A stretch of 32,000 nt of DNA from Kingella potus. GTDB taxonomy: Bacteria; Pseudomonadota; Gammaproteobacteria; Burkholderiales; Neisseriaceae. Location: assembly GCF_900451175.1 (NCBI RefSeq), contig NZ_UGJJ01000001.1, positions 119,910 to 151,909 of the forward strand, in the 5' to 3' direction. Made by a program: the position numbers and the translations under genes. Positions 16,068 through 32,000 of this stretch are shown piece after piece; the first letter of the stretch is position 1, and each line of letters opens with the position of its first letter. Below the pieces are notes generated by a model. It was not told the DNA's origin, ran no database searches, and was given only the letters and a program-made list of their open reading frames with translations.

Positions 16068-16190
16068 TATTGGCACGGATTTAAACCACAGACTCAAATT
16101 TGTCCAATCCCAACTTATCGTCGTAAAAACCCGTTTCCGGCCTTTATGTTAAAATCCCGCCCCGTTTTCAGATCCCGAAACCTTCCATTC

Positions 16191-17756
16191 ATGACCCAAG
16201 ACAAAATCCTTATTCTCGACTTCGGTTCGCAAGTAACCCAACTCATCGCCCGCCGCGTGCGCGAGGCGCATGTTTACTGCGAGCTGCACCCTTACGATAT
16301 GCCGCTGGCCGACATCAAGGCCTTTAATCCGAAAGGCATCATTCTCTCCGGCGGCCCCAATTCCGTTTACAACTCCGACTATCAGGCCGACACCGGCCTG
16401 TTTGACTTGGGCATTCCCGTATTGGGCATCTGCTACGGCATGCAGTTTATGGCGCACCATTTGGGAGGCGAAGTGCAGCCGGGCAACCAGCGCGAGTTCG
16501 GCTACGCCCAAGTCAAAACCATAGACAGCGAACTCACGCGCGGCCTTTCAGACGGCCTGCCGAACACGCTCGACGTATGGATGAGCCATGGCGACAAAGT
16601 GTCGAAACTGCCCGAAGGCTTCAGCATCATCGGCGACACTCCCTCCTGCCCCATCGCCATGATGGAACACGCCGCAAAACAGTTTTACGGCATCCAGTTC
16701 CACCCCGAAGTAACCCACACCAAGCAAGGCCGCGCCCTCATCAACCGCTTTGTCTTAGACATCTGTGCGGCCAAACCGAGCTGGACGATGCCCAACTACA
16801 TCGACGAAGCCGTGGCCAAAATCCGCGAACAGGTCGGCAGCGACGAAGTGATTTTGGGCTTGTCGGGCGGCGTTGATTCCAGCGTGGCCGCCGCACTGAT
16901 CCACCGCGCCATCGGCGACCAGCTTACCTGCGTGTTTGTCGATCACGGCCTGCTGCGTCAAAACGAAGGCAAAATGGTGATGGACATGTTTGCCCGCAAT
17001 TTGGGCGTGCGCGTAATTCACGTTGACGCGGAAAAACAGTTTCTCGACAAACTCGCCGGCGTTACCGACCCCGAGAAAAAACGCAAAATTATCGGCGCGG
17101 AATTTATCGAAGTGTTTGATGCCGAAGAGAAAAAACTCACCAACGCCAAATGGCTGGCGCAAGGCACGATTTATCCCGACGTAATTGAAAGCGCGGGCGC
17201 AAAAAGCAAAAAAGCCCACGCCATCAAATCGCACCACAACGTTGGCGGGCTGCCTGAAAACATGAAACTCAAACTGCTCGAACCGCTGCGCGACCTGTTT
17301 AAAGACGAAGTGCGCGAATTGGGCGTGGCGCTCGGCCTGCCGCGCGAAATGGTGTACCGCCACCCCTTCCCCGGACCCGGTTTGGGCGTGCGGATTTTGG
17401 GCGAAGTGAAAAAAGAATACGCCGATCTGCTGCGCCGCGCCGACGACATCTTTATCCAAGAATTGCGCAACACCTTTGATGAAAACGGCACTTCGTGGTA
17501 CGACCTTACCAGCCAGGCGTTTGCAGTCTTCCTGCCCGTCAAATCCGTGGGCGTGATGGGCGACGGCCGCACTTACGATTACGTAGTTGCCCTGCGCGCA
17601 GTCGTTACCAGCGACTTTATGACCGCGCATTGGGCGGAGCTGCCGTACAGCCTGCTGGGCAAAGTATCCAACCGCATCATCAACGAAGTGCGCGGCATCA
17701 ACCGTGTGGTGTACGACGTGAGCGGCAAACCGCCCGCCACCATCGAGTGGGAATAA
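16191..17756 (+). CDS. guaA: GMP synthase (glutamine-hydrolysing)
   Basis: [25 protein letters not shown] start, GATase motif GICYGMQ, PP-loop LSGGVDSS, and C-terminal [12 protein letters not shown] at 16191 was chosen because the ORF-track start at 16059 lies inside the dif site. Confidence 0.95.
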
Positions 17757-27575: not shown

Positions 27576-27614
27576 AGGCCGTCTGAAACCGCAAAACAGT
27601 TTTTCAGACGGCCT
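27576..27614 (+). terminator. inverted DUS pair hairpin after parC (last DUS in the window)
   Basis: GCCGTCTGAA at 27578-27587 and TTCAGACGGC at 27603-27612. Confidence 0.6.
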
Positions 27615-28242
27615 CTGCCGCTAAGGTTAGTATATATCGCCTAATTATCTGTTTAAATTATATTTAGCAGACACGCAAGCAAACCAAGCATATGAATTGC
27701 AAACTGGTGTTGAGCTTGCGCCCGCAGTTTTTTTATAACCATCAGCTCTTCGATTCCCGATACTTTTTCACCCACGTCTTGTACAGCAAGGTAGTCTTTG
27801 GTTTTGCTCCCTACCTTTTCCCGTACTTCGCCGAACTGATTGTTCTAATGCCTGCTCATGCAGGCTACCTCCTTAGCGCGGTTCGCTTCAGATTTGGAAA
27901 ATACAGTGCTCTACATGGAGAAATCGCCAGGTATTGCCCGCTACTGGCAGACTATACGCAAACGGTAGAGGATAGCGCAGAAGACTCCATAGAGGTCACT
28001 GATGTGGTGCAGTCTTGAGGTACAGGGCTTTGGCTCGTTCGCCCGCATTCAAATACTGATTACGGCTCGAGAGGGCGAGCTCCTCGGCAGCGCGGCTGGT
28101 ATTGACGGGGACAATTTCGAAAGGAGACCCGCCAAGCTTAGGAGAGGCTGAGAGCGCAGACTTTCCTGATAGGAGCAACAGATTCAGCAATCGTGCCGAG
28201 ATAAAAAATATTTTTGTCATTTATATTTTGAGAGTTCGTGTA

Positions 28243-29196
28243 TCAATTGATATTTACTTGGCACAGAATTCCTCCAGGCAGCTTGTTATCTGTGTTGTCA
28301 ATATAGGCAATAATGCCGAATGTACCGGAAGCTGCATCTACTACTTGGTCTTTTTTGGCAATGGCAACACTGACAGGCTGATTAAACGGTGCCTCGGGAA
28401 TGACCCTGACCGTGTCGCCCGTTTGGATGTCTCGAAAATACTTAAACGGTAAAACAGCCGTTAATTTTAATCGTTCAATCTGTGCCAGGCGCAAAATGGG
28501 ATTTTTATTGTCGACAGCACTCACCACAGTACCTACATCGGCATAACGCGCAGTTACAATACCATCAAACGGGCTGGTAATGGTGCGTTCCGACAATTCC
28601 GCCAGTGATGTCCGGTAGTCCGCTTTGGCGATTTGATGATTCTCCTGAGCTTGTTTTAATTCGGCCGCTGCAATATTGCGCTCGTTTAATGCATCGTCAC
28701 GTGCTTGTGCTGAAACAAATTCTTGGCGGTACATCTGCTCCATACGGTCGGCTTTTACATTTGCCAACGCCAATTTCTTGCGAGCACCGTCTATTTGTGC
28801 CTGCGCTTGAGCGCGCTGGTGTGCACCTGCAACAGTAGATTTAGCGACGGCTGCATCCAACACCACCAGTACTTGTCCTTTTGTAACGTTATCGCCACGT
28901 CCTACTGTAATTTTATCAACCACCCCCGTTACCGAACTGCGGATTTCTACCGTCTGCTCTGGTTCTATCATGCAACTGAATACCGACTTGGTATCATCCG
29001 GTATGCTGGCAGCTTCAGATGCGGCAATATTAGAATTGGGAGCCGTATCGTTAATTGTAACAGGGTACTCACGGCTAACCTTTGGAACAGGTATGGTTTG
29101 ACTTTTTGACCATGACAGCCAAATACCTAATCCGGCAAGAGTAAAAATAATGCAGATAATGAGTGTTCTGTTTTTAAATGGATTAGGCTGAGACAT
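28243..29196 (-). CDS. HlyD-family periplasmic adaptor (membrane fusion protein)
   Basis: 317 aa. It has an N-terminal membrane anchor (LIICIIFTLAGLGIWLSW), a lipoyl-like segment (VTGVVDKITVGRGDNVTKGQVLVVLD), a coiled-coil hairpin and a beta-barrel segment (ITSPFDGIVTARYADVG). Confidence 0.85.
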   Translation of the reverse strand: MSQPNPFKNRTLIICIIFTLAGLGIWLSWSKSQTIPVPKVSREYPVTINDTAPNSNIAASEAASIPDDTKSVFSCMIEPEQTVEIRSSVTGVVDKITVGRGDNVTKGQVLVVLDAAVAKSTVAGAHQRAQAQAQIDGARKKLALANVKADRMEQMYRQEFVSAQARDDALNERNIAAAELKQAQENHQIAKADYRTSLAELSERTITSPFDGIVTARYADVGTVVSAVDNKNPILRLAQIERLKLTAVLPFKYFRDIQTGDTVRVIPEAPFNQPVSVAIAKKDQVVDAASGTFGIIAYIDNTDNKLPGGILCQVNIN

Positions 29197-29268
29197 AGGT
29201 TCGATACAATCGTTAAAATAAGAAATTAGGGTATTACCGTACGTTAAACTGAAAATGCGAACAGGCTA

Positions 29269-29589
29269 TTAAGACTTTCCCGACATAATGGTTGCCGCAC
29301 CGCATAAACATAATGCCATACCCAGCCAATCATTAGGCTTGGGCGCGACTCCGTCCACCCACCACAACCATAGCAATGCCATGCCGATATAAATCCCGCC
29401 ATAGGCAGCATAAATACGACCACTGGCCGTAGGGTGCAGCGTCAACAACCAAACAAACAATGCCAAGCTTATGGCCGAAGGGAGCAGCAACCACGCTGTT
29501 TTATCTTGTCGCAGCCAAAGATAAGGCAACCAGCAACCGACAATTTCCATAAGAGCGGTCAAAACAAATAATCCGAAAGTTTTCAACAT
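29269..29589 (-). CDS. ynfA: YnfA-family (UPF0060) small membrane protein
   Basis: 106 aa from ATG 29589 ([27 protein letters not shown]...), with four hydrophobic helices as in the YnfA family. Confidence 0.8.
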
Positions 29590-29843
29590 AAACAACACCA
29601 TTCTCAACAAGCACAACCCAAGCGGCAAACACAATTATGTAATCTTTCCTGTACGGTCATGCAGAAAATCGCTGAAGCATACTTGATCTGTGAAGTATGA
29701 ACGTGCCAAATGCAATAGGATGCAATCAAACTGATTTGCAGATTTCCTAAAATAATAACCTATTGTAAAAAAAAATTTTAAAAAGTTCTATCTCAAAAAA
29801 TCATGATAATGTAATCTGCAAACCATTCTAGACCACATTATAA

Positions 29844-31865
29844 TTAACGTACCTTACCCGCAAAACCGATCTGTTTACTTAACTCTCGGTCTTGTTTTAG
29901 TGTTTGCATACGAATGCGGTAATGATGCCGCTGTGCGGTGTATTGTGCCAGTTTGACCGTCAGACCCAGCCACAAGGCAGTCAAGCGGGGAATGCGGATA
30001 TGCTTACCGACAGCGCACAATAAGGCTTGATGGCGACGCAGTAATTCATCTTCGAACGACACAATTGCCTGTACCGTTCCGGCTTCTCCCTGACGAGCAC
30101 AGCGACCGACAAGCTGACGGTCAATACGAGCTGATTCGTGGTATTCGGTCAAAATCACATGCAGACCGCCTGCCTGTTTGCTGTCCTTACTCAACTTAAT
30201 GTCGGTACCCCGTCCTGCCATATTGGTTGCAACAGTAATACGGCCGGGGTAACCAGCACGAGCAACAATTTCTGCTTCCTGCTGATCTTGACGGGCATTC
30301 AATACCACAAAGTCTATCCCAACTCTGTTCTGGATATGAATACCAAGCTGTACGGCAATACACTCGGATGCTTCCACGCTGCGCGTACCAATCAATACCG
30401 GCTGGCCTTGTGCCGCCCTGTTTAGTGCATCTTGGGCAACTGCTGTCCATTTCTGCTCCAAACTGTTCATGCAGCGAGCAGGCAAATAAGTGCGTCGGTT
30501 TTCTTTGTTGGGCGGAATGACGCGTACACGCAAGTGATAAACTGTCCACAATTCTCGTGCCACTTCAGTTGCAGTACCCGTTAAGCCAGACAACAGCAAA
30601 TATTGACGGAAAAATCGCTGAAACGTCATTTTTGCCAATGTTTCCCGCCCTTGACTGAGTGGTAGTCCTTCTTTGGTTTCAATCAACTGATGTAGCCCCT
30701 GCTCCCACGAACGATCAGGCATTCTCCGACCGGTGGATTCGTCGATAATTTGGATTATCCCGTCTTGGATAATATAGTGTTCATTTATACGGTACAGATG
30801 CAGAGCACTTAAAGCTTGTTTAACAATCAGTCGCTGCCATGCAGCATTCTGCCAAACTGAACGCACCTCTGCGGGCGGTGGTTGACTCTCTCGTAATGCA
30901 TCAGGATGCAGCATAATATCGTGCTGCGCATAATTGATGGAAAAATGAATACCTTCCTGCAAACCCCTCGCAATATATATCGCCCATTGCAATAATGCCG
31001 GTTCAATCAAGCTTTCGGTTTCACGCGAAATGATTAGCGGGGTACGGGCTTCATCAATCAGAATACTGTCAGCCTCATCTACAATGCAAAAATGCAATGC
31101 GGGAATTATCGTTTCCTCTGCTTTCTGCTCCGGTGTACTCTGCTGAAACTGACGAATATAGTGTAAACGGGCATAGCCGGCACCATTTGCAAATAACTTG
31201 TCTTTCAGATAATCAAATACGATTTCTTTTGCTGGCACATAGCAAATGTTTTTGCGGTACGCTTCACATCGTTGCTCGTGTTCTGTTTCGCTACCGACAG
31301 CAGCACTCGACAAACCGAAAAAAGCAAATAACGGCTTCATTTCGGCCTCATCACGTTCGGCAAGATAATCATTGGTACTCAATACATGAACATAAGCACC
31401 AGAAACAGCGGCAATGGTTGCCGCCAGTGCCGCAACTAAGGTTTTACCTTCACCTGTCTCCATCTGTGCAAGGCTTCCCGAGAGCAAAGCATATACGCCG
31501 AAAAACTGCACAGGATGAGGAAAATAACCCAAAGTATGCTCGGCTGCCAAACCCACACAAGCCAATACACGTGCCAAGACGGGGAAATGATGCGGTTGCC
31601 TCTTCAAATTGCCAATGGCTTGTTGCAGCAAAATCGTCCATTTTTCAGGTATGTAATGGCGGAATTTTTCGGTTTCTTCCAAAATATATTCATTCAGACG
31701 GTCTATCTCACGACAACTGATTTTTTTGGAGGCAAACCAACCGCTAAAGCCATGCAGCATTAACTCCATCTTACTGGGAAGCTGTTCTGCCCGTTCATGG
31801 CGGATATTGTCAGCCAAGCGAAGCCAGCTACCCGCATAACAACGAATTAAACTAGGATCAGACAT
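29844..31865 (-). CDS. SecA-like ATPase, truncated paralogue (673 aa; motor domains only)
   Basis: SecA motifs are present: METGEGKTL (Walker A), TNDYLAERD, VDEADSILIDEARTPLIIS, MTFQRFFRQYLLLSGLTGTATE, ATNMAGRGTDIKL and GGLHVILTEYHESARIDRQLVGRCARQG. It is about 230 aa shorter than housekeeping SecA and has an unrelated ~120-aa N-terminal extension. Confidence 0.8.
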   Translation of the reverse strand: MSDPSLIRCYAGSWLRLADNIRHERAEQLPSKMELMLHGFSGWFASKKISCREIDRLNEYILEETEKFRHYIPEKWTILLQQAIGNLKRQPHHFPVLARVLACVGLAAEHTLGYFPHPVQFFGVYALLSGSLAQMETGEGKTLVAALAATIAAVSGAYVHVLSTNDYLAERDEAEMKPLFAFFGLSSAAVGSETEHEQRCEAYRKNICYVPAKEIVFDYLKDKLFANGAGYARLHYIRQFQQSTPEQKAEETIIPALHFCIVDEADSILIDEARTPLIISRETESLIEPALLQWAIYIARGLQEGIHFSINYAQHDIMLHPDALRESQPPPAEVRSVWQNAAWQRLIVKQALSALHLYRINEHYIIQDGIIQIIDESTGRRMPDRSWEQGLHQLIETKEGLPLSQGRETLAKMTFQRFFRQYLLLSGLTGTATEVARELWTVYHLRVRVIPPNKENRRTYLPARCMNSLEQKWTAVAQDALNRAAQGQPVLIGTRSVEASECIAVQLGIHIQNRVGIDFVVLNARQDQQEAEIVARAGYPGRITVATNMAGRGTDIKLSKDSKQAGGLHVILTEYHESARIDRQLVGRCARQGEAGTVQAIVSFEDELLRRHQALLCAVGKHIRIPRLTALWLGLTVKLAQYTAQRHHYRIRMQTLKQDRELSKQIGFAGKVR

Positions 31866-32000
31866 ATAATTCTTTTAGAAATAATTGCTTCAAACGTACA
31901 AACCACTGCCATGCCAAAGGTGTATTGCCAAAATCGAAGCGCACATACACACGTTGTCCGAATACCCATGCTTCATCATTTGCCTGATTTCGCGAAATAT
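31858..32000 (-). CDS. 3' end of an unidentified ORF running off the window, overlapping the SecA-like start by 8 nt
   Basis: My own translation of the minus strand: ...ISRNQANDEAWVFGQRVYVRFDFGNTPLAWQWFVRLKQLFLKELYV, then stop. There are no internal stops, and the TGA at 31860-31858 overlaps ATGTCTGA of the next gene. Confidence 0.5.
   Translation of the reverse strand, partial: ISRNQANDEAWVFGQRVYVRFDFGNTPLAWQWFVRLKQLFLKELYV

Follow-up and report, generated by a model that had tools for sequence, protein, structure and literature searches.

A SecA-like ATPase without helical wing in Kingella potus belongs to a widespread, ABC-less gene module that is genomically linked to giant LEPR-XLL proteins

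SecA, a universally essential protein, is regarded as the motor that drives the general Sec pathway; in its canonical form it engages SecY through its two-helix finger and helical wing. In a stretch of 32,000 nucleotides from the genome of Kingella potus (contig NZ_UGJJ01000001.1, positions 119,910 to 151,909; the whole stretch is called the window below and its first base is position 1), an uninterrupted open reading frame (ORF) at 29844-31865 on the reverse strand encodes a SecA-like ATPase of 673 amino acids that possesses neither of these elements. The question raised by this locus is what a SecA-type motor of this kind drives and with which partners it works. Here, we argue that the protein is the third member of a conserved four-gene module which probably forms an exporter for giant proteins with an N-terminal LEPR-XLL motif.

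Pfam comparison of the 673-residue protein recovers SecA_DEAD (1.6e-76, residues 50-440), SecA_PP_bind (1.3e-18, residues 294-396) and P-loop_SecA (2.4e-44), with no match to SecA_SW. In alignments to solved structures, residues 96-662 correspond to residues 61-603 of the 841 residues of Bacillus subtilis SecA. The alignment stops at B. subtilis position ~603, and the protein therefore terminates within the long scaffold helix. Hence, nucleotide-binding domain (NBD) 1, the preprotein cross-linking domain, NBD2 and the first scaffold helix are retained, while the helical wing, IRA1 with the two-helix finger and the C-tail are missing. In line with this, an earlier reading of the sequence (hereafter the first-pass annotation) had put the missing C-terminal part of housekeeping SecA at about 230 residues, a figure with which the alignment agrees. 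The AlphaFold model (pLDDT 80.4, pTM 0.77) ends in a single long helix (residues 626-665), has TM scores of 0.70-0.72 to SecA structures and includes SecA2 of Clostridioides difficile and Mycobacterium tuberculosis among its structural matches. The same annotation had stated that all SecA motor motifs are kept, and indeed GEGKT (138-142), DEAD (263-266), TGT (429-431) and TNMAGRGTDI (547-556) form invariant columns in an alignment of 32 homologues, as do the arginine-finger positions R588 and R591. The novel N-terminus of ~120 residues that it described has to be revised: the first ~95 residues are strongly diverged, but only ~38 are extra, and the Pfam and NCBIfam alignments begin at residues 50-53, equivalent to model positions 12-16. 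Judged by its motifs and domains, the protein is a SecA-type motor with intact active site and substrate clamp and without the SecY-engaging elements.

It is also clearly set apart from housekeeping SecA by the equivalog models, both of which it misses (TIGR00963, 473 bits at a cutoff of 800; NF009538, 466 bits at a cutoff of 814). A canonical secA is expected elsewhere in the K. potus genome, because SecA is universally essential and the present copy sits in a foreign island. The exact protein is present in two K. potus assemblies (loci L001 and L002), and more than 120 homologues with lengths of 652-703 amino acids and identities of 48-75% cover 98-100% of it.

The start codon of the SecA-like gene overlaps the stop codon of an upstream ORF by eight nucleotides (ATGTCTGA, 31858-31865, reverse strand), just as the first-pass annotation had it, which indicates translational coupling of the two genes. 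The window holds only the last 47 codons of the upstream gene (31858-32000, reverse strand), and the upstream genes were taken from locus L002, which is identical to the window over 12,157 bases. The complete gene (L002:7843-10008, module gene 2) encodes a protein of 721 amino acids in which a PqqD-like domain, a site-2 protease (S2P)/M50 membrane protease domain and a periplasmic, HlyD-type C-terminal domain are fused; it is called M50-MFP below, for M50 and membrane-fusion protein. An M50 peptidase upstream had been predicted, and this membrane protein with its HExxH and NPxxxxDG motifs answers to that prediction. In 18 M50-MFP sequences, HExxH (H213-E214-H217) and NGNPLMRYDGY (N307...D315-G316) are invariant. 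They match the zinc-ligand motifs of site-2 proteases and the protease is apparently active; the Pfam M50 score of the K. potus protein, 23.1, stays under the gathering threshold of 27.2. The structure of M50-MFP was judged from a homologue with 79% identity, modelled by AlphaFold (pLDDT 79.6). Its N-terminal domain has beta3-alpha3 topology, as in PqqD-type peptide-recognition elements, and is followed by about eight transmembrane helices and by a C-terminal domain that matches the MacA, MexA, AcrA and EmrA adaptors (E about 1e-10). The PqqD match in the sequence itself (residues 35-101) is weak, with an E-value of 0.003.

Two further genes complete the module. Gene 1 (L002:6129-7838) precedes the M50-MFP gene and encodes a GAF-HlyD protein of 569 amino acids with a long N-terminal cytoplasmic part, an HlyD_3 match (4e-15) and a weak GAF_2 match (E 0.006); against a hidden Markov model (HMM) built for the GAF-HlyD family of the module it scores 1008 bits. 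Gene 4 lies in the window at 28243-29196 on the reverse strand and encodes a short membrane-fusion protein of the HlyD/RND_mfp type (317 amino acids, N-terminal transmembrane helix), which scores 486 bits against the HMM of the fourth module gene. The first-pass annotation had seen an HlyD-type adaptor here; it is a membrane-fusion protein, yet its NCBIfam class is RND_mfp and not type_I_hlyD.

To which extent these genes belong together was evaluated by scanning species-representative genomes with conserved peptides of the M50-MFP partner, whereby 590 of the 600 listed stretches, a lower bound, were confirmed and 80 loci kept. A second SecA-like ATPase, which had been called unusual, is thus not very rare. 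Neighbourhoods were counted in 84 loci, all ORFs of which were scored with the HMMs of the module proteins, and only loci with enough room entered each count. In 68 of 72 loci the SecA-like gene comes immediately after the M50 gene, which is preceded by the GAF-HlyD gene in 73 of 77, and the short HlyD gene is present in 59 of 64, while the same overlap of eight nucleotides (ATGTNTRR) recurs in 48/75 related loci from several phyla. The M50-MFP partner is conserved in parallel with the SecA-like protein, and a profile search of 1.84 billion representatives yields 5,225 M50-MFP clusters at 50% identity (E <= 1e-30). Carriers of the module include Acinetobacter, Moraxella, Psychrobacter and many Burkholderiales, furthermore Nitrospira, Desulfobacterales, Syntrophorhabdus, Mesorhizobium and Roseovarius, as well as Flavobacteriales, Myxococcota, Rokubacteria and Deferribacteres, so that the conservation of the neighbourhood, proposed earlier as a check, extends over many phyla. 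About half of the loci have an OEP/TolC-type gene at one or the other end of the module. An ABC (ATP-binding cassette) exporter had likewise been predicted among the partners; no ABC transporter gene is found within the module in any locus examined. In two loci, one gamma- and one betaproteobacterial, a protein of 237-244 amino acids without family assignment is encoded between a giant gene and the OEP gene (L004:2908-3642 and L087:3956-4669); the two proteins are 32% identical and may be an accessory factor.

This four-gene module has already been described bioinformatically (Kamneva, Poudel & Ward 2015, PLoS One 10:e0129066; PMC4452313), and the K. potus gene adds a member to it. The dedicated, poorly characterised export or processing system that the first-pass annotation suspected is supported by the M50 partner and the conserved neighbourhood, but it is not new. 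In that paper, 'secondary SecA_DEAD domain proteins' that have lost wing and scaffold are co-encoded with a GAF/HlyD protein, a transmembrane Peptidase_M50-like protein, an HlyD/biotin-lipoyl protein and sometimes an OEP, with no ABC transporter, in Planctomycetes, Verrucomicrobia, Proteobacteria, one member of the Nitrospirae and one of the Chlorobi. The SecA-like protein is proposed there to be the ATPase and the M50 protein to be a possible inner-membrane pore, and the biological role of the module is stressed as unknown. The K. potus module has the same four proteins in the same order (for example Methylobacterium extorquens AM1, META1p2402-2399); both SecA-like proteins contain SecA_DEAD and SecA_PP_bind and have lost wing and scaffold completely or in part, an OEP is sometimes adjacent and an ABC transporter absent in that module and the loci studied here alike, and spread by horizontal transfer is inferred for both. 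Compared to the published module, the K. potus copy carries ynfA before gene 4 and has no adjacent OEP gene, and the Neisseriaceae are not among the taxa named in the accessible text. Nor does that text mention substrates, giant genes, LEPR-XLL, RTX, cadherin, adhesins or the PqqD-like domain. The links to giant neighbours and to LEPR-XLL that follow are absent from the literature searched on the module.

With regard to possible cargo, the flanks of the module are informative. Called giant proteins beside it comprise 10,961 amino acids in Marinagarivorans, 11,698 in Niveibacterium, 11,258 in Variovorax and 10,992 in Roseateles, and the closest metagenomic relative (74% identity) has an adjoining giant of 10,308 amino acids. 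Overall, 63 loci show 4 kb or more of flank, and in 43 of them an ORF of at least 1,000 amino acids lies within ~4 kb of the module; it is co-oriented with the module in 40 of these 43 and in most cases located upstream, the median distance being 711 nucleotides. The visible C-terminal parts of the giants contain Cadherin_4/5, Big_9, RTX nonapeptide, Calx-beta, PKD, matrixin-like and PT-HINT domains, a set which, going by domain annotation, is typical of secreted adhesins and toxins. At three loci the giant lies downstream and its N-terminus is visible (a Ramlibacter metagenome-assembled genome and two Roseovarius loci), and all three giants carry a LEPR-type motif; these amount to two independent cases, the giant of L071 being a 96%-identical copy of that of L070. 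The giants of L068 and L070 match NF012209 (LEPR-XLL) with 24.2 and 28.4 bits at a cutoff of 17.

The linkage was also approached from the side of the cargo, by a blind scan of metagenome contigs, for which ExLE[PQ]RxLL[SA]AxP was turned into a degenerate DNA pattern. Of the resulting 120 loci (L093-L212), 101 have the motif near the start of an ORF, at a median of 35 residues, and these ORFs are often very long (up to 4,853 amino acids visible). Module genes lie beside the start of the LEPR gene in 19 of the 101 matches, and in 14 of the 49 with at least 2 kb of upstream flank. Linkage in 19/101 is not due to chance, because the module is too rare. ABC genes near the 101 LEPR genes are represented by two weak matches only. 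Thus, there is a two-way genomic linkage between the module and LEPR-XLL giants, and it is these giants, rather than the small substrate ORFs that had been expected earlier, that are the likely cargo. The LEPR-XLL sequences share a consensus sharper than the name of the motif implies, a basic stretch followed by F-R-[LV]-E-x-L-E-[PQ]-R-x-L-L-S-A-D-P, in which E, R, A and P are fixed by the search pattern, so that their invariance is not independent evidence.

The C-terminal ends of the giants were inspected as well. A motif [DE]xW[LM]xx[LM]Exx[AL]xxxW stands at the extreme C-terminus of beta- and gammaproteobacterial giants only (L005, L007, L009-L013, L018-L021, L025, L027, L031, L033, L034, L036, L041, L060, L088 and L092), whereas alphaproteobacterial giants end in W..R.GLL.RL.SLF. 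As a shared C-terminal signal, [DE]xW[LM]xx[LM]E...W was rejected, since it is lineage-specific and absent from complete small LEPR proteins.

Taken together, we consider it probable that the module is an ABC-less, type-I-like trans-envelope exporter for LEPR-XLL giants, with the SecA-like protein as its cytoplasmic ATPase. In such an exporter, the SecA-like motor would provide the energy in place of an ABC transporter, the M50-type membrane protein would take over the inner-membrane role or passage, and the three membrane-fusion domains would form a periplasmic duct to a TolC-family outer-membrane channel. The cargo would be giant repeat proteins, often of more than 10,000 amino acids, with the N-terminal leader composed of a basic stretch and F-x-[LV]-E-x-L-E-P-R-x-L-L-S-A-D-P. 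The PqqD-like domain might read LEPR-XLL, the M50 protease may cleave the leader and, by analogy with SecA, clamp and motor of the SecA-like protein would thread the unfolded giant from its N- to its C-terminus, with the GAF domain gating or sensing. What has been observed directly is the domain make-up, the intact catalytic motifs, the constant gene order with its coupling and the genomic linkage in both directions; the role of the giants as cargo, the choice of channel-forming component, the recognition and cleavage of the leader and the direction of threading are all inferred. More tentatively, and at somewhat less than even odds in our estimation, these parts could amount to a distinct, widespread secretion pathway that is guided by a leader and is not a variant of type I secretion, characterised by the LEPR-XLL leader, its recognition by the PqqD-like domain, its removal by the protease and a wingless motor.

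Several observations speak against the exporter as proposed. Linkage of module and giants is not proof of cargo. About one third of the related loci have no giant in the visible flank; in many of these, upstream sequence is missing. K. potus itself has no giant ORF, LEPR motif or OEP gene in the ~42 kb examined. The PqqD assignment is a weak one, derived from low sequence scores and a predicted topology, and a domain of the site-2-protease type is hard to picture as a protein-conducting channel. In addition, the M50-MFP gene in the two Roseovarius loci (L070:12127-13848 and L071:12127-13848) is followed by the gene of a degenerate SecA-like protein of 573 amino acids, which keeps the clamp (cross-linking-domain) region and has lost Walker A, DEAD and motif V, and directly after it stands the LEPR-XLL giant in both loci. 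Motor function is therefore dispensable or replaced in some lineages, and ATP hydrolysis by the SecA-like protein is not always required. Finally, a literature search on SecA-like proteins together with HlyD, M50 or PqqD partners produced no functional study, only the paper of Kamneva and coworkers and passing mentions.

Among known systems, the classical type I secretion systems (HlyB-HlyD-TolC; LapB-LapC-LapE) resemble the proposed exporter in combining membrane-fusion proteins with a TolC-family channel and in the neighbouring genes for repeat proteins of very large size, in which RTX, cadherin-like or bacterial Ig domains occur. They differ in that the module contains no ABC transporter and would be energised by a SecA-type motor, in its inner-membrane component of the site-2-protease type and in its three different membrane-fusion proteins, compared to one in type I systems. 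Moreover, type I secretion signals are C-terminal, whereas the candidate cargo of the module carries an N-terminal LEPR-XLL motif. If a motor of the SecA type indeed works with an intramembrane protease and adaptors of the TolC type, secretion across both membranes would be powered in a different way.

A connection between wingless SecA motors and giant proteins has a precedent in giant proteins of Omnitrophota and Actinobacteria, within which SecA_DEAD and PP-bind domains were found (West-Roberts et al. 2023, bioRxiv 10.1101/2023.11.21.568195). As in the module, a SecA motor with preprotein-binding domain occurs there without scaffold and wing, and it was proposed to aid export of the giant; in contrast, the motor there belongs to the giant chain itself and partners of the HlyD, M50 or TolC kind are not described, while in the module it is a separate protein of ~670 amino acids in a fixed set of four genes. 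In Chlorobium chlorochromatii, according to a 2026 preprint, two proteins of 36,806 and 20,647 amino acids begin with LEPRxLL and have no known export signals, and a recently acquired 'secA' (Cag_1676) falls into the same co-expression cluster as these giants, a connection that the authors of the preprint do not draw. The supplementary files of this preprint and of Kamneva et al. contain nothing on Cag_1676 or on Neisseriaceae members. If the leader-guided pathway exists as outlined, it would explain how LEPR-XLL giants such as the two Chlorobium proteins leave the cell; the LEPR-XLL link offers a concrete, testable cargo hypothesis and a possible answer to the export of some of the largest known bacterial proteins.

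The alternative that survives best, which we nevertheless consider unlikely, is a module of the bacteriocin type or one for ribosomally synthesised and post-translationally modified peptides (RiPPs), which would mature and export a small peptide: the PqqD-like domain would bind a leader, the M50 protease would cut it, and the HlyD-type and SecA-like proteins would export the product, in parallel to bacteriocin exporters that contain a peptidase. It draws on the best NCBIfam matches of the M50-MFP protein, which are RiPP leader proteases, on its weak PqqD match and on the fact that the K. potus locus has no giant gene. Yet the HEWAHG motif and membrane region reach only 159.5 bits against daptide_HExxH (NF041824; 1.2e-46, cutoff 300), and YydH/LiaK (NF058609) is matched with 34 bits (2.3e-8, cutoff 225), so that both models stay far under cutoff. 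Furthermore, tailoring enzymes, radical-SAM or other, do not accompany the module in ~90 loci, and neither does a small precursor ORF that is conserved; instead, the module has the strong two-way linkage to giant LEPR-XLL genes. The likeness to RiPP exporters and proteases (peptidase-containing ABC exporters, daptide MpaP, YydH/LiaK M50, PqqD-type elements) lies in a related HExxH intramembrane protease and a PqqD-like N-terminus, and a logic of leader recognition, cleavage and export may, by analogy, be common to these systems and the module. The module protease differs by missing the family cutoffs and by its fusion to a membrane-fusion domain. Tailoring enzymes are not present, and in place of peptides the candidate substrates are proteins with thousands of residues.

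Improbable, too, is that the protein is an accessory Sec ATPase which, like Gram-positive SecA2, feeds SecYEG, with HlyD-type and M50 proteins acting later in the periplasm. Like the SecA2 proteins of Gram-positive bacteria and mycobacteria, it would be a second, non-housekeeping SecA paralogue for special substrates; it has a true SecA fold with preprotein cross-linking domain, its structural matches include the SecA2 proteins named above (among them 4UAQ, M. tuberculosis SecA2, which likewise lacks the helical wing domain), and one homologue carries the name 'secA 2' given by the Joint Genome Institute (JGI). However, it belongs to a different clade and misses the cutoffs of all SecA2 models (TIGR03714, TIGR04221, TIGR04397 and NF012136; 335-419 bits at cutoffs of 725-1100). 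SecA2 keeps the two-helix finger and works with SecYEG or SecY2, while the module protein has neither finger nor helical wing, no secY2 or asp genes occur among its neighbours, and its start codon is coupled to the M50-MFP gene in several phyla, which speaks for a membrane partner other than SecY.

A role in signalling or quality control, in which the GAF domain senses, the site-2-type protease cleaves a membrane substrate and the SecA-like protein extracts or feeds it without any export across the outer membrane, appears improbable as well. Site-2 proteases classically act in signalling, and the GAF-like domain, weak as it is, would fit. Kamneva et al. (PMC4452313) suggest that the GAF protein is regulatory; its expression in M. 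extorquens is separate from that of the remaining operon. On the other hand, three membrane-fusion domains and, in about half of the loci, a TolC-family neighbour make little sense without a trans-envelope duct, and no conserved sigma/anti-sigma pair is encoded nearby.

That the gene is a functionless, decaying remnant of a duplicated or transferred secA, for which a length below that of SecA, the foreign-looking island, the missing neighbouring cargo and outer-membrane factor genes and the split neighbour genes in L001 could be cited, has next to no probability in view of the intact ORF, the length conserved in more than 120 homologues, the invariant motor motifs and ratios of nonsynonymous to synonymous substitution (dN/dS) of 0.05-0.10 for all four module genes (K. 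potus compared to its nearest relatives). By these ratios, the K. potus SecA-like gene is under purifying selection and is not a decaying fragment. In L001, the complete-genome assembly of K. potus (CP091516.1), three reading frames are broken relative to L002, those of M50-MFP, the short HlyD protein and the essential ParC, by a 1-nucleotide insertion and two TA insertions (9459, 13202-13203 and 14358-14359); the TA insertions lie inside GCGGCCG. Most likely these are systematic assembly or sequencing errors, because one of the two identical TA insertions, with GCGGCCG around it in both cases, hits the essential parC, and a pseudogene reading of the split genes was rejected for this reason. 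An assignment to a defence system was rejected as well, with no PADLOC match for any of the four module proteins.

Coming back to the exporter, the K. potus copy is either an orphan or a remote-cargo copy: cargo and TolC may be encoded elsewhere, or the cargo was recently lost. The outer-membrane factor predicted beside it is not present in the island. LEPR-type regular expressions find no motif in the window or in L002, no ORF in the 32-kb window plus 10 kb on the other side is longer than ParC, and neither the window nor L002 matches an HMM of the conserved giant C-terminus. When the last 1,596 residues of the closest relative's giant were used in a protein search, there were 24 matches, none of them from K. 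potus, which is uninformative as all are of at most 1,525 amino acids and seemingly fragments. In the closest relatives of the locus, a large ORF cut by the contig end lies directly upstream, and two of them have an OEP gene downstream. As an orphan, the K. potus copy is less informative about the module than other loci; its genus is related to human and animal commensals and pathogens.

The genomic setting of this copy is an island of ~8.3 kb (L002:5950-14253) between ruvB and parC, which contains the module, ynfA and a 108-amino-acid ORF only. The window covers 27613-32000 of it. The first-pass annotation had described a low-GC segment free of DNA uptake sequences (DUS), and this description holds: of 47 copies of the DUS 10-mer GCCGTCTGAA in the whole window none falls into 27613-32000, and the GC content is 42-49%, compared to 56-65% in the DUS-rich flanks. 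An inverted DUS pair (27578-27612) marks the parC-side edge. By composition, the island was likely acquired horizontally.

Downstream of the SecA-like gene and on the same strand, a gap of 209 bp with 33% GC (29635-29843) is followed by ynfA and the short HlyD gene, again as first annotated, so that gap and ynfA separate module gene 4 from genes 1-3. The ynfA gene (UPF0060; 29269-29634, reverse strand, likely start ATG at 29589) encodes a small membrane protein with clear family matches (Pfam 1.3e-36; NCBIfam YnfA 149 bits at a cutoff of 114). Between module genes 3 and 4 it is absent at L005, L090, L092 and all other loci compared, including Conchiformibius steedae and two close metagenomic relatives. 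By this comparison ynfA is a K. potus-specific insertion, and it probably does not contribute to the function of the module. The genes downstream of the AT-rich gap probably have a promoter of their own within it; in a promoter and terminator scan of the island, predicted promoters scored no better than those of shuffled sequences and operon boundaries were not clear.

Some minor observations concern the surroundings. The 108-amino-acid ORF (27692-28018, forward strand) lies between the short HlyD gene and parC and has no Pfam match. At a distance of 1.4 kb past ruvB from the island, an SMI1/KNR4 gene (SUKH-type, often toxin immunity) is located at L002:4280-4669 on the reverse strand; the giant of the closest relative has a PT-HINT pretoxin domain, and in C. 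steedae a CdiA-like toxin gene stands beside the module. These three features may be a hint that the cargo includes toxins. Next to guaA, at 7800-16500 of the window, lies another segment that is poor in DUS and low in GC (33-45%). Its ORFs (10199-11356, 11365-11649, 11676-13001 and 14429-15739, all on the reverse strand) include those for Zot (8.9e-37), DUF2523 and a Rep_trans replication initiator (2.3e-28), and by this gene content the segment looks like an integrated filamentous (inovirus-like) prophage.

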